From a virus, in the IMG/VR virus record IMGVR_UViG_3300043411_001575, positions 64,001 through 128,000 of that record: DNA of 64,000 bases. One strand, written 5' to 3'. Below are positions 29,897 through 52,572 of the stretch, one piece after another. The notes beneath the pieces were generated by a model. The model was not told the origin of the DNA and did not search any database. It saw nothing but the letters and a program-made list of their open reading frames with translations. Numbering within the stretch: position 1 is the first letter of the stretch; every line of letters begins with the position of its first letter. The translations under genes and the position numbers were made by a program.

Positions 29897-29898
29897 TT

Positions 29899-30733: not shown

Positions 30734-30735
30734 AA

Positions 30736-34403: not shown

Positions 34404-34602
34404 AATGGCACATAACGGTTTGCAGCTAAACGCTGATTTTGTTCTTCACAAAATTTGCGATTTAGGTGCTGTTATGTATCAGTTTATTTTTTACTTTTTT
34501 GCGTTGGCTTTCAATTAGTTACACAATTTAACAAAAATAATCTTGAAATTGTTTGCAGATTCAAAATATAGCCGTATATTTGTATCAACAAAACGAAACA
34601 AC

Positions 34603-35004: not shown

Positions 35005-35297
35005 AAGAATGTACAATGTGCGCTTTAAAAGAGCCTGAATTTAAAAAGTGCATTTTTAGCGATTGCCCTAATGGTGTAAATTTTGTAACCTGCGATTGTG
35101 GAGAGAAAATTTACAACACGGATGGCAAAAAAGCGAAGTGCAAAAAATGCAAACCACATGGAGGTAAAAGGCTAAATGCAGGACGAAAAAGCCAATACAA
35201 AGAAGAAACGCAAACAATTTCTTTCCGTGTACCAAAATCACTAATTGAACCGATTACAAAATACGTCAAACGTGCGCTGGCAAAAAGTAAAAAATAA
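35001..35297 (+). CDS. Zn-finger + GG-motif/RHH-like regulator
   Basis: CxxC pairs; HGGKRLNAGRK..TISFRVP. Confidence 0.6.
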   Translation: MKECTMCALKEPEFKKCIFSDCPNGVNFVTCDCGEKIYNTDGKKAKCKKCKPHGGKRLNAGRKSQYKEETQTISFRVPKSLIEPITKYVKRALAKSKK

Positions 35298-35495
35298 ATT
35301 GTACATAACGTTTTGCGTATATGAGAAGTGGCACTTGCACAAACTTGAAATTTAGCACAAATGTTTCTGTGCCATTTCTTATATACGCTGTTATGTGTAG
35401 TTGCGGTTTAATAGCAGGGAGTTCAATTTGAAATGAGATACTTTTTCTTTTCTTTTTTGAGCGATGGCAAAAATAAATTTGAAAAATTTAAAAAT

Positions 35496-36308
35496 ATGAT
35501 TGATATAAACAAGAATTACAATGAAAGTAATTTAGAAACAATGGCAAAGATGCCTGATTGCTTTGTAGATTTAACAGTAACATCTCCACCTTATGATGGA
35601 TTGCGAACTTATAATGGATATTCATTTCCATTTGAAGATATTGCAAAGGAGTTGTTTAGAATTACAAAAGATGGTGGCGTATTAGTTTGGGTTATTTCAG
35701 ATGCTACCGTTCAAGGAAATGAAAGCGGAACATCATTTAAACAAGCCTTATATTTCAAAGAGATTGGTTTTAATTTGCACGACACAATGATTTGGATTAA
35801 AGACGGTGGTGGTGCAGTAGGAAGCAATAAGTGTTACACACAAAACTTTGAATATATGTTTGTGTTTTCAAAAGGAAAAATAAATACTACAAATCTAATT
35901 TATGATAAACCAAACGCTTCTTTTGGTAAAGATAAAAGCGGAGTAGGTAGAAGATTGGTAACTGGTGAACACAAAATAGAAAAGCGTAAACCAAGTGCCG
36001 AATTTAGTAGAAGAAACAACTATTGGTATATCGCACCACAAAAAGGCGAACACCCTGCGGTATTCCCAGAAGCACTTGCAAATGACCATATTTTAAGTTG
36101 GAGTAATGAGAATGACTTAATTTATGACCCATTTATGGGAAGTGGTACAACCGCTAAAATGAGTATTCTAAATAACAGAAATTGGATAGGCAGTGAATTA
36201 TCCTCTGAATACTGTGATATGATTGTGCAACGAATTAAAAAAGCGTTGGAAGAAAAAAGAAAAGAAAAAGATTTAATAGCAAACTCTTTATTTGGAAACG
36301 ACTTTTAG
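35496..36308 (+). CDS. DNA methyltransferase, beta class (SPPY)
   Basis: TSPPY, HPAVFP, YDPFMGSGTT. Confidence 0.9.
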   Translation: MIDINKNYNESNLETMAKMPDCFVDLTVTSPPYDGLRTYNGYSFPFEDIAKELFRITKDGGVLVWVISDATVQGNESGTSFKQALYFKEIGFNLHDTMIWIKDGGGAVGSNKCYTQNFEYMFVFSKGKINTTNLIYDKPNASFGKDKSGVGRRLVTGEHKIEKRKPSAEFSRRNNYWYIAPQKGEHPAVFPEALANDHILSWSNENDLIYDPFMGSGTTAKMSILNNRNWIGSELSSEYCDMIVQRIKKALEEKRKEKDLIANSLFGNDF

Positions 36309-36489
36309 CAATTACACATAACGTTTTGCGGCTTTGCGTTCGGTTTTTTGCCTTATCCGAATGTCCAAATTTAGCACAATGTTTAAAGGCAAAAACTGAC
36401 GCAAAACCGATGTTATAAGCTGGCTGCGGTTTATTAAACGAAAAGCTAAATACGAAGCACTAAAGAAAAGAATTTAAAAAAAGGAAGGG

Positions 36490-37308
36490 ATGGAAATAAA
36501 TAAAATATACAACGAAAATTGCCTTGAAACGATGGCTAAAATGCCTGACAATTTCATTGACTTAACGGTTACTTCTCCGCCTTATGACGATTTAAGAACA
36601 TACAATGGATATTGTTTTGACTTTGAAAATGTAGCAAAAGAATTGTTTAGAGTAACAAAACAAGGTGGTGTAGTTGTTTGGATTGTAAACGATAGCACAA
36701 AAAACGGTAGTGAAAGTTTAACATCATTTAAACAGGCTATTTATTTTGTTGGTTGTGGGTTTAATTTGCACGATACTATGATTTACAAAAAGAAAAATCC
36801 GATACCACTAAACCATAATAGATATGAGCAAAGTTTTGAATATATGTTTGTTTTTAGCAAGGGGAAACCGAAAACATTTAACCCTATTATGGAAGATTGT
36901 GTATTTGCTGGGAAAGACATAGTTAAGAACAGAACATTTTACCAAACAGATGAAAGTAAAACAAGTAAAGGACATAAGAATAAACCTATAAAAGAGCAAA
37001 AAATAAAACAGAACATTTTTGAATATTCACTATACGGAGGCAAAAAGGATTTTATACAAGGTGCTGTTTTTCCTGAACAACTTGCAACCGACCAAATAAT
37101 AAGTTGGAGCAATGAAAATGATTTGGTTTATGACCCTTTTATGGGAAGTGGTACAACGGCTAAAATGGCAATTTTGAATAATAGAAAATATATTGGCAGT
37201 GAAATTTCAGAAGATTACTGTAAGATTATCGAAACTCGTATTAAAGAGTGCGGTGGGCTTTTTTTTAATTCTTTTCAAACGGAATTGTCAAACGAAGCAG
37301 GAACGTAG
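36490..37308 (+). CDS. DNA methyltransferase, beta class (SPPY)
   Basis: TSPPY, AVFP, YDPFMGSGTT. Confidence 0.9.
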   Translation: MEINKIYNENCLETMAKMPDNFIDLTVTSPPYDDLRTYNGYCFDFENVAKELFRVTKQGGVVVWIVNDSTKNGSESLTSFKQAIYFVGCGFNLHDTMIYKKKNPIPLNHNRYEQSFEYMFVFSKGKPKTFNPIMEDCVFAGKDIVKNRTFYQTDESKTSKGHKNKPIKEQKIKQNIFEYSLYGGKKDFIQGAVFPEQLATDQIISWSNENDLVYDPFMGSGTTAKMAILNNRKYIGSEISEDYCKIIETRIKECGGLFFNSFQTELSNEAGT

Positions 37309-37587
37309 CAGCTTGCTTATAACGGTTTCGGGCTTGGCGAAGAAGCGGACTTATACCACTAAAGTTGATACGAAGAACCAATGTTGATGCTACTACAAAT
37401 GTTCATACGAAGCACTAAACCCGCTTTTTTGCCAATACTTTGTTATGCGTTCGCCTTATTTTTTCGTGTTGATTTTCAGCAAGTTAGAAACTATTTTAAA
37501 AATAAATCAAAAATACTTTGAAAAAAGTTTGCAGTTATCAAAATAGGTTGTATATTTGTACCAGATAACAATTAAAAAATAAACAAA

Positions 37588-37737
37588 ATGACAACAGCAA
37601 CAGTAAAATCAGAAGCAAAATGGAAAACACAATTTCAAATAATGTGGAATAACACACCAAAGAAATTAAGAAGAACCATCTCACAAGTAAACAACATTAA
37701 ATCACAAGCAAAATTATACGCAGCATTATGGATGTAA
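37588..37737 (+). CDS. Small cassette protein (49 aa, not in ORF track)
   Basis: MTTATVKSEAKW... directly after the promoter leader. Confidence 0.55.
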   Translation: MTTATVKSEAKWKTQFQIMWNNTPKKLRRTISQVNNIKSQAKLYAALWM

Positions 37738-37949
37738 CAGCAAAAATGGAGCAGGGCAATATAAAAGCCCTGTTCCCCAACTTAGGAATGGAAGTAATTA
37801 CAAATGGCTGTGTTTGCCAAATTATTCAAATCTCATCTCAACAAATCAAAGTCGAAATAACCGAAGCAATAAACCCGATGTATAAAGTTGGAAATCAAAT
37901 TTGGGTTGATAGCTTTTTAATACCATCCGATGAAAAAGAAAAAAACTAA
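37728..37949 (+). CDS. Small cassette protein
   Basis: Operon-packed ORF. Confidence 0.6.
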   Translation: MDVTAKMEQGNIKALFPNLGMEVITNGCVCQIIQISSQQIKVEITEAINPMYKVGNQIWVDSFLIPSDEKEKN

Positions 37950-38097
37950 TAGAGGTGGAGTTCGGGATGGGGCTGGTAGAAAAAAAGCAGACTACGAAAC
38001 AAAAACTATTTCCTTTCGTGTTCGTCTTGAATTTGTAGAACCGATTAAAAAGATGGTCAAGGATTATGTTTCGGAGCGTCTTAAAGGTGACGCATAA
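37930..38097 (+). CDS. RGG-motif/RHH-like regulator (55 aa, not in ORF track)
   Basis: RGGVRDGAGRKK..TKTISFRVR. Confidence 0.65.
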   Translation: MKKKKTNRGGVRDGAGRKKADYETKTISFRVRLEFVEPIKKMVKDYVSERLKGDA

Positions 38098-38168
38098 CGT
38101 TCGAGGGCTTGGCGAAGTGGCTGAACCTGAAGCTAAATAGAATTACTAAACTTAAAAATTAAGAACGA

Positions 38169-38939
38169 ATGATTGATAGAATTACTGAACAGCCATTTTG
38201 CCAAACCCGTGTTAGTGGCAGTACTTTTGTGAATGCTGATTGCTTTGATGTTTTTCCTTTTATCGAGGATAAATCAATTGATGCTATTATTGCCGATTTG
38301 CCTTATGGAACTACTCAAAATAAATGGGATAGTATTTTGCCACTTAATAAACTTTGGAAAGAATACAAGCGGATTTTAAAAGATAGTGGTTGTGTTGTTC
38401 TTTTTGCTCAAACTCCATTTGACAAAGTACTTGGTTGTTCAAATTTAGATTGGTTAAAATACGAATGGATTTGGGATAAAAAACTTGGAAGTGGTTCTTT
38501 GAATGTAAAAAAAATGCCTTTAAAAAGACACGAAAATATATTAGTATTTAGCAAAGGGAAAACCACATATAATCCACAAATGACAAAAGGTAAATTTAGA
38601 AATAAAAGTACAAGTAAGCCATCATCTAATAAAGGTAATTACGGAGAAATAACACACCAAAAAGATAATTTTAATGATGATTATTATCCAACCACTATTT
38701 TAGAATTTACTAATGCAAATGTAAGAGCAAGGGTTCATCCAACTGAAAAACAATTATCTCTTATGGAATACCTTGTAAAAACATACACAAACGAAGGCGA
38801 TACAGTTTTAGATAATACAATGGGTTCAGGAACAACAAACTTGGCTTGTATCAAATTAAATCGCAAATCAATTGGAATTGAAAAGGAAAAACAATATTAC
38901 GATGTCGCTGTTCGGAGGGCTTCGGAGTATTGCCACTAA
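38169..38939 (+). CDS. DNA methyltransferase, beta class
   Basis: ADLPY, HPTEK, LDNTMGSGTT. Confidence 0.9.
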   Translation: MIDRITEQPFCQTRVSGSTFVNADCFDVFPFIEDKSIDAIIADLPYGTTQNKWDSILPLNKLWKEYKRILKDSGCVVLFAQTPFDKVLGCSNLDWLKYEWIWDKKLGSGSLNVKKMPLKRHENILVFSKGKTTYNPQMTKGKFRNKSTSKPSSNKGNYGEITHQKDNFNDDYYPTTILEFTNANVRARVHPTEKQLSLMEYLVKTYTNEGDTVLDNTMGSGTTNLACIKLNRKSIGIEKEKQYYDVAVRRASEYCH

Positions 38940-39188
38940 CGTTTTGCGTATATGAGAAGTGGCACTTGCACAAACTTGAAATTTAGCACAAATGTTTCTG
39001 TGCCATTTCTTATATACGCTGTTATGCCCTCGTTGCGGTAATTTTAGAACTAACTTCAATCGAAGCACTAAGGCATTTTTATTCTTTTTGTGGGAGGGTT
39101 GAAAACTTTTTTAAAATAACACTTGCTAATTAGCAAAATATAGTTACTTTTGTAACGCAATAATGCAGAAAACTAAAATTTAAAAACA

Positions 39189-39419
39189 ATGTCAAAAGCA
39201 GTTTATCAATTATTATTTGCTAATCAATCTGCCGATTCAAAGGTGCGATATGAATTAGTTAGAGAAACAAAAATGTATGTTTTTTTAAGAGAAATCACAA
39301 AAGAACCTCAATACATTTTTAGAGTTCACAAAAAAACATTAAGCGTTAAGGGTATCAAGGAAGGTAAAAATGGTTATCAATTTGACGTGGCTGACGCAAG
39401 AATTTTAAAAAAAGTATAA
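39189..39419 (+). CDS. Small cassette protein
   Basis: Lies between promoter and HTH gene. Confidence 0.65.
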   Translation: MSKAVYQLLFANQSADSKVRYELVRETKMYVFLREITKEPQYIFRVHKKTLSVKGIKEGKNGYQFDVADARILKKV

Positions 39420-39421
39420 CT

Positions 39422-39607
39422 ATGCGACTATCTGTAACAGAATACGCAAAACAGCTTGGTGTAACTCGTCAAGCTGTTTTGTTACAGATTAAAGAAAAAA
39501 GGTTGCCTAATAATGTTAAGTCTGAAAAAATTGGCAACACTTACTCTTTAACTGTGGGTGGGCAAAAAAAGAATAAAAATGCTTCCAATAAACTACAATC
39601 GAAGTAG
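39422..39607 (+). CDS. Small HTH regulator, copy 6
   Basis: MRLSVTEYAKQLGVTRQAVLLQIKEKRLP. Confidence 0.8.
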   Translation: MRLSVTEYAKQLGVTRQAVLLQIKEKRLPNNVKSEKIGNTYSLTVGGQKKNKNASNKLQSK

Positions 39608-39738
39608 TATCGTAGCAATGGGGCATAACGGTTGAGTGTATGAGTAGTGTGGCTTTGTACATACTCTCGACTTACAGATAAATTTATTTAGCCACATTAC
39701 TTATACACTTTGTTATAGGTATGTAAAATTTACGGATT

Positions 39739-39933
39739 ATGAAACAGAAATATGTAAGATGCTTAGATAAGTTTGAAGTAGAATTAAAAGAAGGTGATAT
39801 TGTTGATGTTCAAATGGATGGTGAACATGAAATATATAAGAAAGAAGGTGGACAACTCTACTTCAAACCTTATGGAAAAGAAGATATGGTAAGTGCTTAC
39901 TTCTCAAATGATATGATTAAGGTAGAACGGTAG
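39739..39933 (+). CDS. Small cassette protein (YopX-like motif)
   Basis: LDKFEVELKEGDIV. Confidence 0.5.
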   Translation: MKQKYVRCLDKFEVELKEGDIVDVQMDGEHEIYKKEGGQLYFKPYGKEDMVSAYFSNDMIKVER

Positions 39934-40217
39934 TAAATTTTATTACCTATAACGGACGAGTATTGGCGAAGAAGCGGACTTTTACCACTAAAGTTGATAC
40001 GAAGAACTAATGTTGATGTTACTACAAACGTTCATACGAAGCACTAAAACCGCTTTTTTGCCAATACTTTGTTATGCGTTCGCCTTATTTTTTCGTGTTG
40101 ATTTTCAGTAAGTTAGAAAATATTTTGAAAATAAATCCAAAATACTTTGAAAAAAGTTTGCAGTTATCAAAATAGGTTGTATATTTGTACTCAGATAACA
40201 ATTAAAAAATAAACAAA

Positions 40218-40463
40218 ATGAGAACATTGATTTTAGAAGCAAACGTAATTGAAACTAAAAACAGTTACACAATAGACACTACTATTGAAAAAGAATGGGG
40301 AATGAAAAAACCTATAATGAAAAAAATTCTTTACGGGATAGAAATTCAAAAGCCAACTGCATATAGAATTTATAATCATGGAAACGGTTCTTCAAGAACT
40401 TGGGTGTTTGGTGATTTGGAAATAAACCCAGATAGTAGAAGTGTTAAAAAATTGGCAAAGTGA
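40218..40463 (+). CDS. Small cassette protein
   Basis: Same promoter scaffold as unit 37442. Confidence 0.65.
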   Translation: MRTLILEANVIETKNSYTIDTTIEKEWGMKKPIMKKILYGIEIQKPTAYRIYNHGNGSSRTWVFGDLEINPDSRSVKKLAK

Positions 40464-40627
40464 AAAAGAAAAAAGAAACGAGAGGGGGCAAACGCTCCTT
40501 CTCTGGTCGCAGAAAAGCATCATACGAAACTAAAACTATTTCCTTTAGAGTTCGTATTGAATTTGTCGAACCGATTAAAAAGATGGTTAAGGATTATGTT
40601 TCGGAGCGTCTTAAAGGTGACGCATAA
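40460..40627 (+). CDS. RGG-motif/RHH-like regulator (GTG start, not in ORF track)
   Basis: Paralog of 37930-38097. Confidence 0.65.
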   Translation: MKKKKETRGGKRSFSGRRKASYETKTISFRVRIEFVEPIKKMVKDYVSERLKGDA

Positions 40628-40750
40628 CGTTTTGCGTGTATGAGCAGTGGCACTTATACAACGCTTGAATTTGACCACAAAACTTCCTGTGCCATTGCTT
40701 ATACACGCTGTTAGCAGTAGTACGGATTATTAACGAATAAATTAAATAGA

Positions 40751-41545
40751 ATGAGTAATAAAATAGATTTAGATAAATATTATACACCATTGGATAAAGC
40801 TAAATATTGTATTGACAAGGTGTATGAAATTATCGGAGAGAATAATATAAGCGAAGCTATTGAACCAAGCGCAGGTAACGGTAGTTTTAGCTTACAAGTG
40901 CCGACTACTTGTTGGGCTTATGATATTGAACCTGAACACGAAAGTATTATAAAGCAAGATTTCTTGACGTTGGATGTTGATTATCTTTATGGTAGGTTAA
41001 TAATTGGAAACCCACCATTCGGCAGTAGAATGAATTTAGCACAAAAATTTTTCAAAAAAAGTATTGAATTAGGTGACTATGTTGCATTTATATTACCAAT
41101 TAGTCAATTGTGGAATACTAACAGTTTATTTGAATTTGATTTGATTCATAGTGAAGATTTAGGTAAAGTAAAATATAGTGATAGAGATTTACATTGTTGC
41201 TTTAACATTTATAAAAGACCTGAAATTGGATTGAATAACAGACCAAAAAACAAACTAAACTCTGTTAGTATAACAAGACAGGATAGCAAAGGATATGATA
41301 CTATCAATGATTTTGATATAAGAATGTGTTATTGGGGAAATGGGAGTGCTGGAAAAATACTAAAAGAAGGTGAAACTTATAGTGCGGAATACAAGATAAA
41401 AGTAAATGATGAATTTAGAAAAGACGTAATAGATGTTCTTTCTAATATTAATTGGTTTGATGAACTGAATTGTATTGCTATGTTAAAAATTCAACAATTT
41501 CACATAATCAATGTACTGAAAAAGTATGTGCCAAACATTGATTAA
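40751..41545 (+). CDS. N6-adenine DNA methyltransferase, gamma-like motif order
   Basis: DKYYTP, IEPSAGNGSF, IGNPPF. Confidence 0.85.
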   Translation: MSNKIDLDKYYTPLDKAKYCIDKVYEIIGENNISEAIEPSAGNGSFSLQVPTTCWAYDIEPEHESIIKQDFLTLDVDYLYGRLIIGNPPFGSRMNLAQKFFKKSIELGDYVAFILPISQLWNTNSLFEFDLIHSEDLGKVKYSDRDLHCCFNIYKRPEIGLNNRPKNKLNSVSITRQDSKGYDTINDFDIRMCYWGNGSAGKILKEGETYSAEYKIKVNDEFRKDVIDVLSNINWFDELNCIAMLKIQQFHIINVLKKYVPNID

Positions 41546-41620
41546 TAGCACTAACGTAGTATTACTGCTAACGGTTACGGCTTTGTGCAGTGTGGGAAAT
41601 TGAAAAACAAAATTTGAATT

Positions 41621-42424
41621 ATGCAGAAAAGTTTATTTGAAAACGAAATGTTGAATATAGTACAAAAGCCCACATTGCACAAAGCCGATGTTAGCCGCAG
41701 TACATTCTATCAGGGTGATTGTCTTGTGGAAATGGATAAGATTTCCGATAAAAGTGTGGATATGATTTTATGTGATTTGCCTTATGGAACAACAGCTTGC
41801 AAATGGGATAGTGTCATTCCTTTTGAGCCACTTTGGAAGCAATATGAAAGGATTATAAAAGATAACGGGGCAATAGTTTTGACAGCTTCGCAACCATTTA
41901 CAACAATATTAATAAGCAGCAATATAAAGTTATTCAGGTATGAATTAATTTGGCAAAAGGATAAGGCAAGTGGGTTTTTAAATGCTAATAAAATACCATT
42001 GAAAGCACACGAAAACGTTTTAGTATTTTACAAAAAGTTACCTACATATAATCCGCAAAAAACCATTGGTGGGCTGCAAAGGAAAAGGACAAGGAAAAAA
42101 CCAACGCATGAGGTTTTAGGTAAAACTGGTGTAAATGAAAAACACGTTATTTGGCAAGATAACACAAGATACCCTATAAGTGTTTTAGAATTTGATGTAG
42201 ATACTATTAACCACAGTTTGCACCCTACTCAAAAACCAATAGCATTAATGGAATATTTAATAAAAACCTACACCAACGAAGGAGAAACAGTTTTAGATAA
42301 CTGTATGGGTTCAGGAACAACTGGTGTGGCTTGTAAAAAAACAGGTAGGCACTTTATCGGAATAGAAAAGGATGAAAAGTATTTTGAAATTGCCGTTAGC
42401 AGGGTGTCTGCGTATTGCGGCTAA
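41621..42424 (+). CDS. DNA methyltransferase, beta class
   Basis: CDLPY, HPTQKP, LDNCMGSGTT. Confidence 0.9.
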   Translation: MQKSLFENEMLNIVQKPTLHKADVSRSTFYQGDCLVEMDKISDKSVDMILCDLPYGTTACKWDSVIPFEPLWKQYERIIKDNGAIVLTASQPFTTILISSNIKLFRYELIWQKDKASGFLNANKIPLKAHENVLVFYKKLPTYNPQKTIGGLQRKRTRKKPTHEVLGKTGVNEKHVIWQDNTRYPISVLEFDVDTINHSLHPTQKPIALMEYLIKTYTNEGETVLDNCMGSGTTGVACKKTGRHFIGIEKDEKYFEIAVSRVSAYCG

Positions 42425-42485
42425 CGTTTTGCAGATAGGCGTTGTTGCCTCACAAATGATTGATTGAAACACTAAATTTAATAAT

Positions 42486-42827
42486 ATGGGAAATGATAAT
42501 TTAAAAACGGAAAGCAATAACGCCAATGTGCTGTTAGGTGCTGGGTTTGTTTACTTGGTAGAATGTTCATCAGGAAGTTGGGATAGTTACCATTGGTGGG
42601 TTGGAGGAATATTTGAAAAGCAAGAAGATGCTGATAAATATGCACAAAGCTTGAATGATGAAAACAAACGATTAAAAGAGGTTGAATGCTCAATAAAAAC
42701 ACCATTTGAAGATATGACTGATGAAGAAGAAACGGAGTATTACAGGTGGTGGAATGGTAACAATGATGCTATGGAATGGAATGGTGCTAAAGTTAAGCAG
42801 TACCCCATAAACAAACCTTGCACCTAA
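42486..42827 (+). CDS. Cassette hypothetical protein
   Basis: Starts in the hairpin; stop codon is in the TAAC core. Confidence 0.65.
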   Translation: MGNDNLKTESNNANVLLGAGFVYLVECSSGSWDSYHWWVGGIFEKQEDADKYAQSLNDENKRLKEVECSIKTPFEDMTDEEETEYYRWWNGNNDAMEWNGAKVKQYPINKPCT

Positions 42828-42975
42828 CGATTGGGTGTATGAGAAGGTTTGCTTAGATGAACTTTTAAATTTACACAGAATTTTATAGCAAACTTTCTTA
42901 TACACCTTGTTATGTACAGGCACGGTAAATTACCGATGAACTTAATTAAATGAACGAAACTAATAATTTTTAAAA

Positions 42976-43716
42976 ATGTGGGATGGCAAATATGCTTTTG
43001 AAAAAAGCAAAATAATACAAGGAGATAGTTTGGATAAAATAAAATATATACCTAATGGCAGTATTGACTTAATTGTAACTGACCCACCGTATAAAATGAC
43101 GAAACAAGGTAATTCTTGCAGACCAAATTATATGAAAAGTGGAATGGGTGAAAACTTATTTGATGGTGAATTACCAAATACAAAAGAATGGATGAAACTT
43201 TGTTTTGATAAACTAAAAGACGATGCCCATTTCTATGTATTTACCAATATAAATAGTTTGCACGAATACCTTGATGTTGCAAAAGAATGTGGATTTAAAC
43301 TACATAATATTATAAGTATGATTAAAGATACCAAAATGCCTAATAGATGGTATTTAAAATACACTGAATTTGTATTGTTTTTTAGAAAAGGTAAAGCGTT
43401 TCCAATAAACGATATGACAAGTAGAGATTATGAATTTGTTGAAACACCAACATTAAAAAATGGCAAAATACATATATCACAAAAACCATTGAATTTTATT
43501 GAAAAACTAATAACAAATTCATCAAATGAAGGTGAAATATGTTTGGATTTATTTAGTGGAAGCGGAACACTTGCAGAAGCCTGTATAAATACAAATAGAG
43601 ATTTCATTATTATAGAGAAAAACCCAAATGACTTTGAAAAAGGCAAAGAAAGGGTGGGAAAAATTTTTAAAAATTATGGAATTAACATACAACCTTTAAT
43701 CGAAGCACAAATGTAG
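42976..43716 (+). CDS. DNA methyltransferase, beta class (DPPY)
   Basis: TDPPY, HISQKP, LDLFSGSGT. Confidence 0.9.
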   Translation: MWDGKYAFEKSKIIQGDSLDKIKYIPNGSIDLIVTDPPYKMTKQGNSCRPNYMKSGMGENLFDGELPNTKEWMKLCFDKLKDDAHFYVFTNINSLHEYLDVAKECGFKLHNIISMIKDTKMPNRWYLKYTEFVLFFRKGKAFPINDMTSRDYEFVETPTLKNGKIHISQKPLNFIEKLITNSSNEGEICLDLFSGSGTLAEACINTNRDFIIIEKNPNDFEKGKERVGKIFKNYGINIQPLIEAQM

Positions 43717-43910
43717 TGCTTGTACATAACGTTTTCGGGCTTGGCGAAGGTGGGCTTGTAGGATGCTCAATTTTAGCACAATGTGTCTGCCCACTTTTGC
43801 CAAACCCGTGTTATATGAAGTGCCGACTTATTAAGCAGAATTTTAAATTGAAACTATAAACAGAAAAACAAAAAAGAAAAAAAGCGTAGGGAATTTTAAA
43901 AACAAACAAT

Positions 43911-44177
43911 ATGGAAAAGAATTTTATTGAAAAAGCAGAAAAAGAAATTGGTAGAAAATTTGGTTTTTTCATCAGATGTGATGATAAAAACAAACCAACA
44001 GAAGTATTAACCGATATGTACTTTGAACTATGGGAAACAGAAAAGATGAACGAGATTTTATCTTTATGCGAAACACATAATCTTAAATACGATTTTGGTT
44101 TAGAAAGTTTTGATACCAAAATAGATGCTATTGAACAAGAAATATGTATTGTTTCAACTAATTGCGAAAATTCATAA
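43911..44177 (+). CDS. Cassette hypothetical protein
   Basis: Operon with the downstream MTase. Confidence 0.6.
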   Translation: MEKNFIEKAEKEIGRKFGFFIRCDDKNKPTEVLTDMYFELWETEKMNEILSLCETHNLKYDFGLESFDTKIDAIEQEICIVSTNCENS

Positions 44178-44178
44178 A

Positions 44179-44922
44179 ATGGAAGCAAATACGATTTACA
44201 AAGGCGATTGCTTTGAACTTATAAAGCAAATAACAAAAGCAGATAACGTCAAACTTATTATTACAGACCCACCATATTTACATAATAAAGGAGGTGGGAA
44301 AACATCGGGAACAGAGGGTAAAAGTTCAATAGCTAATAGCCCTATGTATAAATTCGATTCATTTATGATGGAAGATATGAGTTCTTTTTTAGAGGAAGAT
44401 GTTTATAATCTATTAGATGAATATAAAAGAATAATGACAAAATTAAACTGCTTTATATTTACTAATGACACTTTGATACCGTATTATACAATGTGGGCAG
44501 TTAAAAACAATAAAAAGTTTACAATTTTAACTTGGGAAAAACCATTGTCGATTTTAAACAGAAATAGATTTAGTCAGAATTTAGAATATGTTGTGAGGAT
44601 TTACGACAATGGAACTGCACTTAATTTAATAGATTTAGAAGCATATCCCGAAAAGAAAAACTACTACTCAAAAAACAGAAGGTTAAATTCGCCTACAAAT
44701 AAGATACACCCAACCCAAAAACCATTAGAATATCTACTTGGATTGATTGAGTTAAATACAAATGAAGGCGATTTAGTATTAGATACGTTTTTTGGTAGTG
44801 GACAAACAGGTAAGGCTTGTCAGATTTTAAATAGAAATTATATCGGTTTTGAAAGAGAAGAAAAGTATGTTGAATTATCAAATAAATATTTACAACAAGG
44901 ATTTGAAAAAACACTATTTTAA
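44179..44922 (+). CDS. DNA methyltransferase, beta class (DPPY)
   Basis: TDPPY, HPTQKP, LDTFFGSG. Confidence 0.9.
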   Translation: MEANTIYKGDCFELIKQITKADNVKLIITDPPYLHNKGGGKTSGTEGKSSIANSPMYKFDSFMMEDMSSFLEEDVYNLLDEYKRIMTKLNCFIFTNDTLIPYYTMWAVKNNKKFTILTWEKPLSILNRNRFSQNLEYVVRIYDNGTALNLIDLEAYPEKKNYYSKNRRLNSPTNKIHPTQKPLEYLLGLIELNTNEGDLVLDTFFGSGQTGKACQILNRNYIGFEREEKYVELSNKYLQQGFEKTLF

Positions 44923-45071
44923 AAGTGTGGTGGCTTTTTTCTTTTTGTTTTTCATTAACGGAACTTCAATTGGAAACGGTCAGCAAGGCATTTCATATAA
45001 CGTTCGAGGGCTTGGCGAAGTGGCTGAACCTGAAGCTAAATAGAATTACTAAACTTAAAAATTAAGAACGA

Positions 45072-45881
45072 ATGATTGATATAATTACTGAACAGCCATT
45101 TTGCCAAACCCGTGTTAGTGGCAGTACTTTTGTGAATGCTGATTGCTTTGATGTTTTTCCTTTTATCGAGGATAAATCAATTGATGCTATTATTTGCGAT
45201 TTGCCCTATGGAACAACTCAATGTAAATGGGATAGCATTATTAATTTAGATTTGATGTGGACGCAATACAACAGAATAATAAAAGATAACGGCATTTTTA
45301 TATTATTTGCAGATGAGCCTTTTACAAGCATATTAATAAATAGTAACATTAAAAATTTTAAGCAAAGAATAACTTGGGATAAACAAATAGCAGGAGGTCA
45401 TTTAAACGCTAAAAAAATGCTATTGAAAAGAACTGAGGATATATGCTTATTTTCAAATGTTAAAAATGGAAAATATACATACAATCCTATTTTAAAAGAT
45501 AAGGATTTTAAAAACATAAGAGATAGAAACGGAGAAAACAGAAAAGAGTTTAAAGGCGGTTATGTAGGGAAACACAATAGTACGTTGAGTAAAGAGCATA
45601 ACAATAAAAAAAGTTACCCAGATAATTTAATTTCCTTTTCAGCAAGAAAAGGCGATTGTAACCCTATAAATAGATTACACCCAACACAAAAACCACTTGA
45701 ATTGATGGAATATCTTATAAAAACCTATACTAATGAGGGCGATTTGGTTTTAGATAACACAATGGGTTCTGGAACAACAATTTTAGCTGCTATAAAAAAT
45801 AATAGAATTGGTATAGGAATTGAAAAGGAAAAACAATATTATGATGTCGCTGTTCGTAGGGCTTCGGAGTATTGCCACTAA
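45072..45881 (+). CDS. DNA methyltransferase, beta class
   Basis: CDLPY, HPTQKP, LDNTMGSGTT. Confidence 0.9.
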   Translation: MIDIITEQPFCQTRVSGSTFVNADCFDVFPFIEDKSIDAIICDLPYGTTQCKWDSIINLDLMWTQYNRIIKDNGIFILFADEPFTSILINSNIKNFKQRITWDKQIAGGHLNAKKMLLKRTEDICLFSNVKNGKYTYNPILKDKDFKNIRDRNGENRKEFKGGYVGKHNSTLSKEHNNKKSYPDNLISFSARKGDCNPINRLHPTQKPLELMEYLIKTYTNEGDLVLDNTMGSGTTILAAIKNNRIGIGIEKEKQYYDVAVRRASEYCH

Positions 45882-45952
45882 CGTTATCGGGCTTGGCGAA
45901 GTGGCTGAACCCGAAGCTAAATAGAATTACTAAACTTAAAAATTAAAAACGA

Positions 45953-46711
45953 ATGTCAAATAGAATTACAGAACAGCCATTTTGCCAAACCAGTGTTAGT
46001 GGCAGTACTTTTGTAAATGCTGATTGCTTTGATGTTTTTCCTTTTATTGAGGACAAATCAATTGATGCTATTATTTGCGATTTGCCTTATGGAACTACTG
46101 CTTGTAAGTGGGATACAATTATACCATTTGAGCCGCTATGGGAGCAGTACAAGCGAGTGATTAAACCTAATGGTGCGATAGTGCTGTTTAGCAAAGAGCC
46201 ATTTACGTGCATATTGAGAACAAGTGAAATTAAAATTTTTAAGCAACCTCTTATTTGGGATAAGGTTAATTCAGATAACCCTATGCAGGCAAAAAGAAGA
46301 CATCTAAACACTACGGAGGATATTTCTATCTTTTACAAATCTCAATGTACTTATAACCCACAAGGTCTTATAAAGTCAAATATAAAAAAGGGAGGGAAGC
46401 AAGGGATAATGATTGATAGTAGTGGTAAGGAAAAAGAACAATATATTCAAGAGAATACCAATTATCCGAAAAATATATTAGTGTACCCGATAGAAAGAAA
46501 GGCGGTTCATCCAACTCAAAAACCCGAAGCACTCCTGCAATACTTAGTCAAAACCTACACTAACGAAGGCGATATAGTCTTAGATAACTGTATGGGTTCA
46601 GGTACAACAAATCTTGCTTGTTTAAAATTAAATCGCAAATCAATTGGAATAGAAAAGGAAAAACAATATTACGATGTCGCTGTTCGTAGGGCTTCTGAGT
46701 ATTGCCACTAA
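45953..46711 (+). CDS. DNA methyltransferase, beta class
   Basis: CDLPY, HPTQKP, LDNCMGSGTT. Confidence 0.9.
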   Translation: MSNRITEQPFCQTSVSGSTFVNADCFDVFPFIEDKSIDAIICDLPYGTTACKWDTIIPFEPLWEQYKRVIKPNGAIVLFSKEPFTCILRTSEIKIFKQPLIWDKVNSDNPMQAKRRHLNTTEDISIFYKSQCTYNPQGLIKSNIKKGGKQGIMIDSSGKEKEQYIQENTNYPKNILVYPIERKAVHPTQKPEALLQYLVKTYTNEGDIVLDNCMGSGTTNLACLKLNRKSIGIEKEKQYYDVAVRRASEYCH

Positions 46712-46918
46712 CGGTATCCGTATAAGGGAAGTGCGAGGAACGAGCATTTACTTTATACGGTGTTAGCAAAGTGCGTTGGGATTGTGTGTCGGCTCGTTCC
46801 AAAACCATTTATTTTCTTTTTTTTGGGGAGGTTTTGAAAACTTTTTTACTAAAATACTTGCTAAATGACAATTTATATTTATCTTTGAACCATATTAATA
46901 ATCTAAAAACAAAACAAA

Positions 46919-47230
46919 ATGATTTACAAAAAAACACACTATGATAAAAAGGCTTTAAACAGCCACGTTTCAAAAATAAAAGATGCAGGAGGAAATGCAA
47001 TAGTAGATGGATTATCGGTTAGATATTTCTATCCATCCAATACCATTGGTGAAATTAGATTAAAGCATAAGAGTTGGAAGAAAACAGAAAGACAAGAAGT
47101 TTTGTTTATTGTTTTAGTTTCTGAAAAAGATAAAACGCCATACTATTCAGCAATGTATTTCCCGAAATGGGTTGAAATAGGAGGTGTTTATGGAAACAAA
47201 AATGACATAACAATAATCGAAAAGTTTTAA
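46919..47230 (+). CDS. Small cassette protein
   Basis: Lies between promoter and HTH gene. Confidence 0.65.
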   Translation: MIYKKTHYDKKALNSHVSKIKDAGGNAIVDGLSVRYFYPSNTIGEIRLKHKSWKKTERQEVLFIVLVSEKDKTPYYSAMYFPKWVEIGGVYGNKNDITIIEKF

Positions 47231-47232
47231 CT

Positions 47233-47388
47233 ATGAAACTGTCTGTAACAGAATATGCAAAACAGCTTGGCGTAACTCGTCAAGCCGTTTTGTTACAAAT
47301 TAAAGAAAAAAGGTTGCCTAAAAATGTGAAGGTTGAAAAAATCGGAAATACTTATTCTTTAACTGTGGGTGGGCAAAAAAGAAAATAA
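47233..47388 (+). CDS. Small HTH regulator, copy 7
   Basis: MKLSVTEYAKQLGVTRQAVLLQIKEKRLP. Confidence 0.8.
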   Translation: MKLSVTEYAKQLGVTRQAVLLQIKEKRLPKNVKVEKIGNTYSLTVGGQKRK

Positions 47389-47533
47389 ATGGTTTTGGAA
47401 TGTTTGCTAACGTATGGTGCTATGAGCAGGTTTGCCTTGCAGAAATGTTCAAATTTAGCACTAATGTTATTGGCAAACTTGCTTATAGCACGTGTTAGCG
47501 GTAGTTTATTTTTCAAAAATTAAAATTAAAAAT

Positions 47534-47992
47534 ATGGGAACACAAGTAGTAGGAGAAAGTAACAGCGTTGAGTATAGCACTCCGTTGAAAATAGTACAGC
47601 CATTGATAAACGAATTTGGCTTAACAAGAGATGTTTGTGCAAGTGAATTAAACCACAAACTACCCGATTATTGGACAAAAGAAGATAATTCACTTGCTAT
47701 GAATTGGAAAGGTAATTGTTGGATGAACCCACCATTTAGCAGAGATTTGAATAAGTGGGTAAAGAAAGCGTGTAATGATGCTGAAAGGTTTGGAGGAACG
47801 AAAGTTTGTTTAATACCTGTAAGAAGCAATACAAAATGGTGGGCGGAAGTTTGTGTAAAAGCAGAAATTCGTTTTATCAATGGCGAAGTAAATTTTAATG
47901 ATGAAGAACGTGGACTTTGGTTGCCGATGTGTATTATCATTTTCGGTGAGAAGGCAAAGGTTGGCACGTTCTCTGTCTTAAATTACCGCTAA
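47534..47992 (+). CDS. Phage DNA N6-adenine methyltransferase (small phage Dam family)
   Basis: YSTP, DVCAS, WMNPPF, LIPVRSNTKWW. Confidence 0.85.
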   Translation: MGTQVVGESNSVEYSTPLKIVQPLINEFGLTRDVCASELNHKLPDYWTKEDNSLAMNWKGNCWMNPPFSRDLNKWVKKACNDAERFGGTKVCLIPVRSNTKWWAEVCVKAEIRFINGEVNFNDEERGLWLPMCIIIFGEKAKVGTFSVLNYR

Positions 47993-48120
47993 CGTTTTGC
48001 AGCTAACAGAAGGCGGCTTTTTAGCAAACTTAGTACTTGCCGCTTTTTGTTAGCTGCTGTTAGTGGACTGTTAAATTATTAAAAAAGAAAAAAGGAGGGG
48101 TGCGAGGGCATCTAAACATA

Positions 48121-48957
48121 ATGGACAAGAAGAAACTTTTAATTGCTTTTAGTGGTGGAGAAACATCTGCATTTATGGCTCAATGGTTATGGAAACATAA
48201 ACAAGGTGAATACGAAATGTTATTTGCTTTTGCTAATACTGGGGTTGAGAATGAAGAAACTTTAAACTTTGTGCATAAATGCGAAGTTGAATTTGGTATA
48301 AATGTTAATTGGTTGGAAGCAGTAATAGACCAAGAGAAAGGGAAAGGCACAAGGCATAAGATTGTTGATTACAAAACAGCAAGTAGAAACGGACAACCAT
48401 TTGAGGAACTGATAAAGAAATACGGTTTACCAAACCAACAGCGATTTCACTGCACAAGGGAGTTAAAAAATAATACATTGATTTCATTTGCAAAAAGTAT
48501 TTGGGGAAAGGAAAAGTATTATTTAGCAATAGGAATTAGAGTAGATGAATTTGATAGGATGAATGATAAATTTAAAGAGTTGAGAATTGTTTATCCGTTA
48601 ATTTCAGAAATTCCAATGACAAAGCCAAAGATTAATTTTTGGTGGAAACAACAACCGTTTAGATTAGAATTAAAAGGTTATCAAGGGAATTGTGTTACTT
48701 GCTACAAAAAAAGTGATAAAAAATTGTTTCAGATAGCTAAAGAAAATCCAAGTGCATTTGATTTCTTTGATAGAATGGAAGAACAATATGGAGAAGGTAA
48801 GTATCAATTTTTTAGGCAGAACCGAACAGCTAAACAAATTATGGAACAAGCTAAAGAATGGAATGGCAATGTAACCGATGACGCACAAAATGTTACAATA
48901 CAAACAGATTTATTTAGCGAAAGTTGTGAAGCATTTACAAGCGATTGCGGTGTTTAA
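48121..48957 (+). CDS. PAPS reductase-like (PP-loop) protein
   Basis: FSGGETS, FANTG.E, CTRELK, GIRVDE, GNCVTC. Confidence 0.8.
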   Translation: MDKKKLLIAFSGGETSAFMAQWLWKHKQGEYEMLFAFANTGVENEETLNFVHKCEVEFGINVNWLEAVIDQEKGKGTRHKIVDYKTASRNGQPFEELIKKYGLPNQQRFHCTRELKNNTLISFAKSIWGKEKYYLAIGIRVDEFDRMNDKFKELRIVYPLISEIPMTKPKINFWWKQQPFRLELKGYQGNCVTCYKKSDKKLFQIAKENPSAFDFFDRMEEQYGEGKYQFFRQNRTAKQIMEQAKEWNGNVTDDAQNVTIQTDLFSESCEAFTSDCGV

Positions 48958-49088
48958 CCTTTTCACAGTTTTGAAAAAACTGAAAGAGTGCGTGGGCTTT
49001 TTCTTTTTTAATAATTTAATTGCCACTAACGGTTCGCAGGTATATTTAGTTGCGGACTTAGTAACACAAAACTTTAAATTTAGAAGAA

Positions 49089-49445
49089 ATGAAGAAAGAA
49101 GAACAAAACTCGAATGAACCACAAAAACCGCAATTGAATATACCTGCTGTTAGTTGCAGTGTTGTTCATTGCAAGAAAGCACCTTATGATGTTTATATTG
49201 GAAGACCAAGCAAATGGGGTAATCCATTCACACACATAAAAGACGGTAAAACACTTGCAAAACATATTGTAGGTAGTAGAGATGAAGCAGTCGAAGCATA
49301 TCTTGAATGGATTACCAACGGAGAAGGTAAACATTTGATGAGTGATTTACACGAATTGAAAGATAAGGTGCTTGGTTGTTGGTGTCATCCACAATCTTGT
49401 CACGGAGATGTACTTTCGGAGTTGGTTGCTAAACATTGCAACTAA
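49089..49445 (+). CDS. DUF4326-like protein
   Basis: VYIGRPSKWGNPF, LGCWCHPQSCHGDVL. Confidence 0.8.
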   Translation: MKKEEQNSNEPQKPQLNIPAVSCSVVHCKKAPYDVYIGRPSKWGNPFTHIKDGKTLAKHIVGSRDEAVEAYLEWITNGEGKHLMSDLHELKDKVLGCWCHPQSCHGDVLSELVAKHCN

Positions 49446-49488
49446 CGTTTTGCAGGTATATTTAGTGCCGAATTTAAAAACGAAAAAT

Positions 49489-49791
49489 ATGAATTTTATA
49501 CAAAAGTTATTTAAAAGCAGAAAGGTTAATGAACCGATGAACTCGGCATTGAATATACCTGTTGTTATACCTCGTTTATCTTCTGATTGGATAAAATTTG
49601 AGGATGAAAAACCACCACACGAAGTAGTATTAGCTGCTTGCGATACTTATGATTGTGGATGGACTATGGATACTGTTTGGTGGTATGAAGATAAGCAATG
49701 TTGGATGGTTACTGGTGCAGTTAAAAGTACAGAAGCACATTTACCATACACACATTGGCGTAAATTACCACCATTTCCAAATGAGGTATAA
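49489..49791 (+). CDS. DUF551-like phage protein
   Basis: WIKFEDEKPP ... THWRKLP; ATG in the hairpin loop. Confidence 0.65.
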   Translation: MNFIQKLFKSRKVNEPMNSALNIPVVIPRLSSDWIKFEDEKPPHEVVLAACDTYDCGWTMDTVWWYEDKQCWMVTGAVKSTEAHLPYTHWRKLPPFPNEV

Positions 49792-49978
49792 CGTATTGGT
49801 GCTATACGAAGGAGGCGATTATTAGCACTAAATTTGATGCGGAGTACAAATGTTTGTTTAACCACAAATGTTTCTGCGGAGTACCAAACCGCCTCTTTTG
49901 TATAGCACGTGTTATACGCTGGCACGGTTGATTAAACGAGAAACTTAAATTGAAACACAAAACAAAATTTTTATTAAA

Positions 49979-50764
49979 ATGAGCGAGGGCAAAAAAGAAA
50001 TATTATTAGGAGATTGTTTGGAACTTATGAAGGATATACCAAACGGAAGTATTGATATGATACTTTGTGATTTACCATACGGAACAACTGCTTGTAAATG
50101 GGATAGTGTAATACCTTTTGAACCACTTTGGAAAGAATATGAAAGGATTATAAAGACCAATGGTGCTATTTTATTGTTTGGAACACAACCATTCACAACA
50201 GAACTAATATTGAGCAATAGAAAATTGTTTAAGTATGATATGGTTTGGTGCAAAGACAAACCTGCTGACTTCGGAAATGGCAATATAAAACCATTAAGAT
50301 ACCACGAAACAATTTGTGTATTTTATACCAAAACGCCAACATACAATAAGCAATTTGAAAGCAGAAAAGGAACTGGCTATTCAAGGGCTAAATATCCTGT
50401 AAATTACATAAACAATTCAGAGCATAAATTTGGAATGAAAGATGGTTCTTTTGATTATGCAAATAAAGACAGAATGATTGGAACTGTAATAGATATTACA
50501 ACTGGTGCAAGAGGTAGCATAAAACACCCAACAGTAAAGCCCGTTCCTTTATTTGAACATTTAATCAAAACATATACCAACGAAGGTGAATTGGTTTTAG
50601 ATAATACAGCAGGAAGCGGAACAACTGCAATTGCTTGTTTGAATACTAAAAGGCAATTTATAGTAATGGAAAAAGAACAAAAGTATTACGATATGATTTT
50701 AAAAAGGGTGGGAGATTTTAATAAAAATTTTGAACCGCAAACTCTCTTTGGAAACGAAATGTAG
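49979..50764 (+). CDS. DNA methyltransferase, beta class
   Basis: CDLPY, HPTVKP, LDNTAGSGTT. Confidence 0.9.
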   Translation: MSEGKKEILLGDCLELMKDIPNGSIDMILCDLPYGTTACKWDSVIPFEPLWKEYERIIKTNGAILLFGTQPFTTELILSNRKLFKYDMVWCKDKPADFGNGNIKPLRYHETICVFYTKTPTYNKQFESRKGTGYSRAKYPVNYINNSEHKFGMKDGSFDYANKDRMIGTVIDITTGARGSIKHPTVKPVPLFEHLIKTYTNEGELVLDNTAGSGTTAIACLNTKRQFIVMEKEQKYYDMILKRVGDFNKNFEPQTLFGNEM

Positions 50765-50848
50765 TGCTTGCGTATAACGGTATCGGGCTTGGCGAAGTGG
50801 CTGAACCGAATGTTTGATAGAAGCACAAAACTTAATAATTAAAAACGA

Positions 50849-51643
50849 ATGATTGATAGAATTACTGAACAGCCATTTTGCCAAACCCGTGTTATGTGCA
50901 GGGCGGTTGATAACCTTGAACTCCTTTTGTCGCAACCTGATGAAAGTGTAGATTTGATTTACTGTGATATTCTTTATGGAACGGGTAGGAATTTCGGTGA
51001 TTACCAAGACTTAAAACCAATTAGAAGCGAAATAGAAAGCCACTACCTACCAAGACTTATTGAAATGAAACGAGTTTTAAAAAGTACAGGTAGTATTTAT
51101 TTGCAAATGGATACACGAATAAACCATTGGATGCGCATTTTGATGGATGATGTTTTTGGGTATGAAAATTTCCGCAATGAAATAGTATTTGGATATAATG
51201 GGGGTGGTGTTTCAAAGAATTGTTATCCTAAAAAACACGACATAATCTTGTTTTATTCTGTTAGTGATAAATACTATTTTAATAACGAAAAGAAACCATA
51301 CTCCGCTTTAAGTTCACAAAACTTATTGTGGAAACATAGGAATAAAAAAAGACTTGATGAACTTAATGATGGCACACCTGTAACCGATGTATGGACTGAT
51401 TTGAAGTTTAAAATAAATTACCAAGAGGAAGAATATACAGGATATGCTACCCAAAAAACAAAAGAATTATTGAGCCGTATTGTTTTAGCTTCCACAAATG
51501 AAGGCGATACAGTTGCAGATTATTATTTAGGTAGTGGCACAACGGCAGTAGTTTGTAAGGAACTGAACCGAAATTTTATAGGTTGCGATATTAATCCAAA
51601 AGCTATTGAAATAACAAATGCTCGTTTAGATGCACTTTCGTAG
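50849..51643 (+). CDS. DNA methyltransferase, beta class, atypical DILY motif IV
   Basis: CDILY, YATQK, DYYLGSGTT; paralog of 20314. Confidence 0.85.
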   Translation: MIDRITEQPFCQTRVMCRAVDNLELLLSQPDESVDLIYCDILYGTGRNFGDYQDLKPIRSEIESHYLPRLIEMKRVLKSTGSIYLQMDTRINHWMRILMDDVFGYENFRNEIVFGYNGGGVSKNCYPKKHDIILFYSVSDKYYFNNEKKPYSALSSQNLLWKHRNKKRLDELNDGTPVTDVWTDLKFKINYQEEEYTGYATQKTKELLSRIVLASTNEGDTVADYYLGSGTTAVVCKELNRNFIGCDINPKAIEITNARLDALS

Positions 51644-51649
51644 CTTTGC

Positions 51650-51702
51650 ACATAACGTGTATTTAATGGAATGGAGTGTCAAAATCAATTAGTTACATAA
51701 TA
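51650..51702. other. Putative attI-like site
   Basis: The last TAAC core (51656) is followed by no hairpin; the integrase ATG lies 46 bp downstream. Confidence 0.5.
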
Positions 51703-52572
51703 ATGGAAGATAAAATTAACAAATTAAGGAGGGAGTTATCCATAAGGAAATATGCTCCTAATACAGTTGAAACATATTGTTCATGTCTTAAAGTTATTTT
51801 TAGTAAATGTGGAATTAATCCAAGTATTGATTCTTTAAAGTCATATTTATTAACTATTGAAAATAGAAACTACCATAAACAAATAGTCGCTACATTCAGA
51901 AACTACTCTGAATTTGTATTAGGTATTAAATTATCTTTAAACGATGTTCCTTATCCTAGAAAACAAGAAAGTTTGCCTGAAATATATTCAGTTGAAGAGG
52001 TTTCTAAATTAATTAATATTCCTAAAAATTTAAAACATCAATCTATAATTTTTTTATTGTATGGATGTGGACTTAGAGTTAGTGAATTAATTAATTTAAA
52101 ATTAACTGATATAGATAGTGATAGAATGGTTGTTAACATCCGAAAAGCAAAAGGAAATAAGGACAGGCAAATAATGTTGGATGAATCTTTACTTAAATTA
52201 CTTCGTGATTATTACACTGAATATAAACCAATAAATTATTTATTCAATGGTCAAAAAAAAGACCAATATAGTGACAGGTCTGTAAATGAACTTCTTAAAT
52301 ATTGGTCTAAAAAAGCAGGTATAAAAAAACATATTCATGCTCATTTATTAAGGCATTCATTCGCTACCCATCTTTTAGATGCAGGAATAGACATGGCTAT
52401 AATTCAAAAGTTATTAGGTCATTCAAACATAAAAACAACGCAAATTTATGCAAAAATTTCAACCAAATTAATATCTCAAATTAAATCTCCATTATCAAAC
52501 ATTAAAATCAATTCAAATGAAAAATCTAGTAATATTATTCCTTTGTGGAATTCTGATAGGTTTCCAAACTAA
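51703..52572 (+). CDS. Tyrosine recombinase, integron-integrase-like without the IntI insertion
   Basis: N-terminal SAM-like domain (RKYAPNTVETY); GLRVSE, KAKGNKDR, HLLRHSFATH, LLGH, TQIY. Confidence 0.92.
   Translation: MEDKINKLRRELSIRKYAPNTVETYCSCLKVIFSKCGINPSIDSLKSYLLTIENRNYHKQIVATFRNYSEFVLGIKLSLNDVPYPRKQESLPEIYSVEEVSKLINIPKNLKHQSIIFLLYGCGLRVSELINLKLTDIDSDRMVVNIRKAKGNKDRQIMLDESLLKLLRDYYTEYKPINYLFNGQKKDQYSDRSVNELLKYWSKKAGIKKHIHAHLLRHSFATHLLDAGIDMAIIQKLLGHSNIKTTQIYAKISTKLISQIKSPLSNIKINSNEKSSNIIPLWNSDRFPN

Follow-up and report, generated by a model that had tools for sequence, protein, structure and literature searches.

Gain of the I2 helix is held to be the innovation that enabled the integron integrase, IntI, to recombine folded single strands, and a "lack of intermediates" has been noted (PMC7790495). 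Whether an enzyme without I2 can serve an integron-like array of gene cassettes is the question raised by a 64,000-nucleotide stretch of viral DNA (positions 64,001 to 128,000 of the IMG/VR record IMGVR_UViG_3300043411_001575; hereafter the window), in which a tyrosine recombinase gene, here called the integrase gene, stands beside a long array of hairpin sites (Table 1). We put the probability at roughly 0.78 that the product of this gene is a recombinase dedicated to an integron-like cassette platform in phages of Bacteroidota-type hosts. A preliminary description of the window had proposed an integrase without the IntI insertion, belonging to a separate clade and handling a different hairpin geometry; what it observed on the reading frame was confirmed, and its interpretation is supported by comparative evidence. 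A full-text literature search found no account of an Xer-type integrase running phage cassette arrays.

The integrase lacks the IntI-specific insertion

The open frame extends from a GTG (51676-52572), and relatives align from the ATG at 51703, which gives a protein of 289 amino acids (aa). The Pfam profile Phage_integrase (PF00589) matched with an E value of 1.9e-43, which identified a tyrosine recombinase. The catalytic residues R-K-H-R-H-Y had been called intact, and all six (R125, K150, H214, R217, H240 and Y249, ATG numbering) were invariant in 21 aligned relatives; these residues and the tyrosine recombinase fold are shared with IntI. Both IntI-like motifs described earlier, KGNKDR and an HxLRH-type motif, were found, the latter as HAHLLRHSFATHLL, and the gap between LLRDY and YLF, first put at about 7 residues, was counted as 8 (YTEYKPIN).

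The insertion typical of IntI is absent, as the preliminary description had claimed. The distance from KGxKxR to HxLRH was 58 aa in the window integrase, 58-61 aa in 77 viral relatives and 57-68 aa in 70 bacterial and archaeal Xer-like matches, whereas it was exactly 100 aa in 19 of 19 canonical IntI. The latter were proteins above the TIGR02249 cut-off with both motifs, and comprised plasmid IntI1 and proteins of gammaproteobacterial and Bacteroidota genomes. The TIGR02249 model covered the integrase in two stretches (model positions 2-181 and 239-314) and positions 182-238 were unmatched; VchIntIA (2a3v) also aligned in two pieces, with 25 query residues against 68 in its chain. In a direct alignment, IntI has two blocks, of 31 and 11 aa, that are both missing from the window integrase, so the earlier figure of roughly 30 aa held for the main block, but the total difference is 42 aa. 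The AlphaFold model had a plain loop at residues 175-190 and no extra helix. An I2-type additional domain around patch III is part of the IntI definition (Messier and Roy 2001, as cited in PMC9668308; PMC7790495), and no such domain was found in the window integrase. Smyshlyaev et al. (PMC8138268) described the insertion as "not fully conserved" within their integron-like subgroup.

Scores against family models agreed with the expectation that standard naming misses the system. The integrase stayed under every NCBIfam cut-off; the best model was XerA_Arch (NF040815) with 206 bits (cut-off 220), and XerD and XerC reached 170.9 bits (cut-off 329.6) and 163.3 bits (cut-off 335.15). The two IntI profiles, which we used as stand-ins for intI_Cterm of IntegronFinder, were also below their cut-offs, with 154.8 bits for TIGR02249 (cut-off 265) and 107.8 bits for PRK15417 (cut-off 435). 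Relatives are labelled XerD or "integrase". In the whole 169,658-bp virus record, the window integrase is the sole tyrosine recombinase and nothing passes an IntI cut-off; a canonical IntI elsewhere in the phage, which would have spoken against the preliminary interpretation, was thus not found.

Among solved structures, the best sequence match was Pyrococcus abyssi XerA (4a8e), aligned in one stretch with an E value of 1.4e-44. The AlphaFold model (predicted local distance difference test score, pLDDT, 85.9) was matched by Foldseek to Thermoplasma XerA (5hxy) at 2.7e-15, and by fold it fits XerA and VchIntIA about equally. The arm-binding domain of the integrases of phages and integrative and conjugative elements (ICE) was not found; the 289 aa consist of a weak SAM-like CB match and the catalytic domain, and in the model the helical CB domain begins at residue 2.

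At the other end of the protein, a C-terminal tail of about 20 residues (window 52513-52572) had a pLDDT below 50 and is missing from nearly all relatives, which are about 268 aa long. An open reading frame of 253 aa (window 52634-53395, + strand) starts 62 nt past the integrase stop. It was considered as a conserved partner of the integrase and rejected, since tblastn found it at 0 of 85 related loci and Pfam gave no match.

Phylogeny of the integrase

A maximum-likelihood tree was built from 104 non-redundant proteins and 281 columns, with branch supports from the Shimodaira-Hasegawa-like approximate likelihood ratio test; its root is unknown. Canonical IntI were monophyletic (support 100) to the exclusion of the clade of the window protein. 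The latter formed one clade with 27 non-redundant IMG/VR relatives (98), with a plasmid enzyme beside it (88), and the distinct recombinase clade that had been predicted was thus recovered. Another split with a support of 98 separated the phage clade and IntI from 43 housekeeping Xer-like proteins. The window integrase therefore lies neither within the IntI clade nor with housekeeping Xer. The protein of one genome flagged as unpublished (G043), which is counted in the canonical IntI tally, was left out of the tree and supports no other claim.

Two DPANN Xer-like proteins (L108:1-908 and L117:1-1721, on contigs of Nanoarchaeota and Pacearchaeota metagenome-assembled genomes) also fell on the IntI and phage-clade side of the tree; upstream of the gene, the two contigs extend for another 107 and 947 nt, respectively. 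Of 401 genomes sampled from the likely host phylum (that of Jejudonia G002), 113 had canonical IntI above the TIGR02249 cut-off, a frequency above our expectation.

The integrase gene is associated with upstream hairpin arrays

In the window, 38 array sites were found first and 4 sites with long loops were added. The rest of the 170-kb genome had only two stray site matches, and shuffled genomes had 3-11. The left end of the array is marked by a degenerate 5' arm. DNA methyltransferase genes make up most of the cargo, and every cassette gene is on the same strand as the integrase and aimed toward it.

The preliminary description had expected that homologues would be tied to upstream arrays of this kind. 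Relatives of the integrase are encoded on 533 IMG/VR contigs, and 81 of the IMG/VR loci were surveyed for sites. There were 109 sites in 393 kb upstream of the relatives and 13 in 645 kb downstream (4 and 7 in shuffled sequence), that is, 0.28 per kb upstream versus 0.02 per kb downstream, a 14-fold difference. As a control, 43 housekeeping Xer-like genes from many phyla had 3 sites in 344 kb upstream (about 0.01 per kb), so the upstream density at the relatives was about 30 times higher. Of the 46 loci with 3 kb or more of sequence upstream, 38 had a site, and the density peaked 0-3 kb upstream. The contigs also ended unevenly: 14 loci end within 250 nt upstream of the match versus one within 250 nt downstream, as would be the case if assemblies tend to break within a variable repeat array. 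Coincidence does not account for the association of gene and array.

The best relative in species-representative genomes was only 49% identical, so the family is essentially viral above about 45% identity. Group-B bacterial relatives (Acidobacteriota and others, and Flavobacteriaceae proteins of about 400 aa) had no arrays by this detector, and the claim is not extended to them. Regions beside canonical IntI (10 from Bacteroidota and 4 gammaproteobacterial) gave scattered matches and no clear arrays with the detector, which was tuned to the sites of the window.

Cassettes are gained and replaced at the AAC beside the gene

Natural variants of the locus were found in cultured phages. The Polaribacter phages Freya_1 to Freya_10 have near-identical, virion-derived circular genomes from one host. 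All ten carry AAC followed by ACCCCTATAAC... 47 nt before the integrase ATG, and between 0 and 10 small genes differ just before this AAC. Freya_9 and Freya_10 are equal over 3793 nt, and then Freya_10 has an exact 307-bp insertion at the AAC. The inserted unit consists of a hairpin, a tail (GTTAGCAAC), a body and a head (TTGTTGCTAAC), as attI x attC recombination with a crossover in AAC would yield. The pair further shows the hairpin moving together with its gene, at the 5' end of the latter. The rule of end pairing described below is symmetric and gives no cassette orientation, so the orientation was taken from this insertion. The same layout was seen in Leef_1 and Ingeline_1, which belong to two further phage families.

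Replacement was seen in uncultured viruses as well. Nine IMG/VR contigs have integrase genes that are 99.9-100% identical and identical attI-like blocks, and four unrelated sequences stand upstream of their AAC. The attI-like block of the window is common to its closest relatives, L003, L004 and L005, each with a different cassette head before the AAC, and equivalent conserved blocks were found in Freya, Leef, Ingeline and IMG/VR groups.

The ends of the cassettes carry a further signature. For most neighbours in the window array, the tail of one site is the reverse complement of the head of the next at 10-11 of 12 positions, whereas the two ends of one site match each other far less well. This pairing is expected if each unit was once circular. 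In the integrase-proximal cassette, the hairpin at 50775-50894 is followed by a tail (GTTATGTGCAGG) to which the head (CTTTGCACATAAC) is the reverse complement; the last methyltransferase cassette (50849-51643) has its ribosome-binding site and start codon within this hairpin.

Outside phages, the Flagellimonas marinaquae plasmid NZ_CP092416 encodes a homologue of 43% identity, which PGAP names xerA. Its cassettes are bounded by hairpin sites and paired head and tail ends as in the phage arrays. On this mobilizable Flavobacteriaceae plasmid, two cassettes directly upstream of the integrase (L173:7883-10792) contain a DHFR-family gene (reverse strand) and erm(F), which indicates that resistance genes travel in arrays of this kind.

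An integrase, an attI-like site, an array of cassettes with foldable sites and insertion at attI, the parts of an integron system, are thus all present in the layout and its natural variants, with catalysis by the integrase as the proposed part. In integrons the cassette genes read away from attI and are driven by the promoter Pc on the integrase side, but those of the window point toward the integrase. We consider it likely that the window integrase catalyses this cassette exchange.

The most obvious objection is that the gene encodes an ordinary lysogeny or unrelated mobile-element integrase, and that the array is a cluster of attC sites lacking integron integrases (CALIN) kept by a canonical IntI of the host. 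In the paper on Freya, Leef and Ingeline, the gene is taken solely to indicate a temperate lifestyle (PMC8776804), and the canonical IntI counted above in the likely host phylum would provide such an enzyme. Virulent phages with no integrase, Polaribacter phage P12002L among them, were reported by Qi et al. (2023, PMC9892861) to carry attC-like sites and methyltransferase cassettes, and IntI1 recombined 5 of 6 phage attC sites. The sole failure, however, was P12002L_attC1, which has the geometry of the window sites; this single case is a hint that IntI1 does not accept it. Against lysogeny, the integrase lacks the arm-binding domain, a strong predictor of phage and ICE integrases (PMC8138268), and the array association is specific to the phage clade. 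Position, orientation and distance to the variable AAC are kept in three phage families, many IMG/VR lineages and a plasmid. What lies left of the junction in virion-derived circular genomes is hairpin cassettes and not host flanks. We regard this explanation as improbable.

In P12002L (NC_028924; L207:29100-32925 and 39122-39245), we saw sites of the same type on the gene-sense strand with paired cassette ends. The published sites were located by reading the region and not by exact primer match, because of cloning ends.

Site anatomy and the putative folding strand

On the + strand, a site reads in the order of a head (aTTgNNNN-TAAC-G), 3-4 partnerless bases, an inner stem of about 20 bp, a loop, the 3' arm and a tail (T-GTTA-NNNNcaGT). 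The inner stem has two G.T pairs at fixed places, and the loop measures tens to hundreds of bases. Stem sequences vary among sites, and the arms of one site pair with each other at a mean of 17.2 of 18 positions versus 11.1 of 18 with arms of unrelated sites. G.T outnumbered A.C (89 vs 26). Folded with DNA parameters, 36 of 38 sites had the more stable hairpin on the + strand, by 2.2 kcal/mol on average (p 1e-7). Read in the sense from cassette over AAC and attI to integrase, the + strand is the counterpart of the "bottom strand" in classical integrons, yet here it is the coding strand, and the genes aim toward the integrase because folding and coding strand are the same. Many cassette start codons and ribosome-binding sites sit in hairpin loops.

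From this anatomy we propose that the substrate is probably the folded single-stranded + strand. The integrase is transcribed away from the array, with the attI-like block between its start codon and the newest cassette, and each cassette comprises hairpin, GTTA-starting tail, body and TAAC-ending head, the head pairing with the tail once the cassette is circular. After folding of the + strand, that is, the coding strand, one monomer would occupy the outer helix (head-TAAC paired with GTTA-tail) and a second the inner stem. Between them, an asymmetric unpaired spacer (cleaved side about 6 nt, other side about 2 nt) would play the role of the central region. Cleavage would fall in or at AAC, which on the other strand reads G/TT (slash at the cut). 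One strand would then be exchanged with the attI-like site or a further hairpin, and the product would be resolved by replication.

In IntI, strand choice and the block to a second exchange come from the I2 helix, which docks single extrahelical bases of attC (PMC7790495). Here, both could come from the site itself, in which a lopsided spacer and two conserved G.T pairs stand in place of extrahelical bases. Such features would fit an enzyme without I2, the attC side of the comparison being taken from the published description; that site features replace I2 is speculative. As for the broader proposal, that an Xer-like family without I2 runs true hairpin-based single-strand cassette capture in Bacteroidota phages and plasmids, we rate its odds as slightly above even.

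The integrase might instead run the array on double-stranded DNA by a conventional two-strand exchange, with hairpins that act at the RNA level or are incidental. In favour of this, the enzyme resembles Xer and has no I2, to which the capacity for single-strand recombination is attributed (PMC7790495), and selection on RNA structure is plausible, since the folding strand is the mRNA strand and loops hold ribosome-binding sites or start codons. However, TAAC and GTTA, which alone are conserved as sequence cores, lie 57-386 bp apart in the duplex, well beyond a central region of 6-8 bp, and come together only when the strand is folded, and pairing is kept while stem sequences vary. Absence of I2 also has a precedent: XerCD, which has no I2, recombines the folded single strand of the CTX phage, and one exchange is finished by replication. 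This reaction is referred to in PMC7790495. A purely double-stranded reaction accordingly seems to us a poor candidate.

Least credible is a resolvase of phage-genome multimers (Xer/dif-like) beside recombination-prone repeats that turn over by homologous or illegitimate recombination: the best matches are XerA, XerD and XerC models or structures and homologous exchange could be supported by stretches common to the hairpin repeats, but whole cassettes are inserted, precisely at a single AAC that adjoins a conserved block, the pairing of a cassette's own ends is the signature of a circular intermediate, and housekeeping Xer-like genes have no such neighbourhood.

Some observations weigh against a dedicated integrase acting on folded single strands. 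Covariation and G.T pairs would equally fit a structure of the mRNA, the folding strand being the sense strand, and the apparent contrast with canonical attC geometry draws on the published description of attC. The Freya integrase is on a long branch (1.88), so its placement with the clade of the window is insecure, and the treatment of distant relatives as one family rests more on the shared layout than on the tree. Because IntI is common in the likely host phylum, a host enzyme could contribute to cassette turnover. P12002L has no integrase homologue in its genome, and such sites are therefore kept without any integrase.

Comparison with known systems

The layout is close to that of classical integrons (IntI; class 1, Vibrio). 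In both, the recombinase is transcribed away from the adjacent array, a conserved site lies between the gene and the newest cassette, and new cassettes are integrase-proximal. The sites are imperfect palindromes with AAC/GTT cores, the start of a cassette pairs with its own end, and the predicted folding strand is the "bottom strand". The differences begin with the enzyme, which lacks the IntI insertion (58 vs 100 aa) and lies outside the IntI clade. Unlike in classical integrons, the cassette genes occupy the strand predicted to fold and face the integrase, with the hairpin at the 5' end of the gene and often including the start codon. Compared with the published description of canonical attC, the window sites have an outer helix of about 12-15 bp, 3-4 extra bases on the cleaved arm and two fixed G.T pairs. 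The carriers found here are phages and a Flavobacteriaceae plasmid.

XerC/XerD acting on CTX attP and on integrative mobile elements exploiting Xer (IMEX) is the best precedent for the proposed chemistry. There too, an Xer-type enzyme without I2 works on a folded single strand with an unpaired central region, which is the proposal for the window. In contrast to CTX, where a housekeeping pair of the host integrates a whole phage at dif, the window has a single element-encoded enzyme of another clade and many small cassettes. Archaeal XerA is the best match by sequence and fold and has the same short CB + CAT architecture, but it acts on chromosome dimers at dif, whereas the window integrase scores under the cut-off of 220 and belongs to a phage clade with arrays. 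The phage CALINs of Qi et al. (2023, PMC9892861) resemble the window array in that the P12002L sites are of the same type and accompany methyltransferase cassettes. They differ in being small clusters (minimum two sites) with no integrase, no link to an Xer-type enzyme or an attI-like site, and nothing of this size.

If capture without I2 is true, the integron lifestyle arose twice or predates the I2 helix, and the functions of I2 are written into the DNA site. The question of the I2 innovation would become testable in living systems, as three genera of cultured phages, those of Freya, Leef and Ingeline, have the layout. Tools that depend on the IntI-specific domain would at best call clusters without an integrase plus a "XerD" or a lysogeny marker. 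The store of DNA methyltransferases in the phage probably blunts host restriction, and the erm(F) and DHFR-family cassettes of the plasmid would represent an unrecognised route for resistance genes in Bacteroidota.

Features of the window

The coordinates of the array, its integrase-proximal end and the gene are collected in Table 1, together with a site of another stem family.

Table 1 Position and description of the integrase gene, array and sites in the window
Feature	Position	Strand	Description
Cassette array	13217..51656	+	At least 42 TAAC-hairpin-GTTA sites (57-386 nt) in one register; 38 kb
Hairpin site, different stem family	49789..49914	+	Stem sequence differs, anatomy same
Last complete hairpin site	50775..50894	+	Arms GGGCTTGGCGAAGTGGCTG / CAGCCATTTTGCCAAACCC; two G.T pairs, 4 extra bases on the 5' side
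Head of integrase-proximal cassette	51644..51656	+	CTTTGCACATAAC; AAC at 51654-51656 is the proposed crossover point
attI-like block	51657..51702	+	46 nt between the end of the last cassette and the integrase ATG
Integrase gene	51703..52572	+	289-aa simple (CB + CAT) tyrosine recombinase without the IntI insertion; proposed cassette integrase

A perfect 26-nt inverted repeat (46797-46822 / 47375-47400) flanks two small open reading frames (46919-47230 and 47233-47388) within one cassette of the array. At three sites (23617-24113, 28963-29303 and 31546-31905), loops of 340-390 nt enclose a whole small gene and are followed by a very short cassette body, for example the 22 nt between 24002 and 24024.
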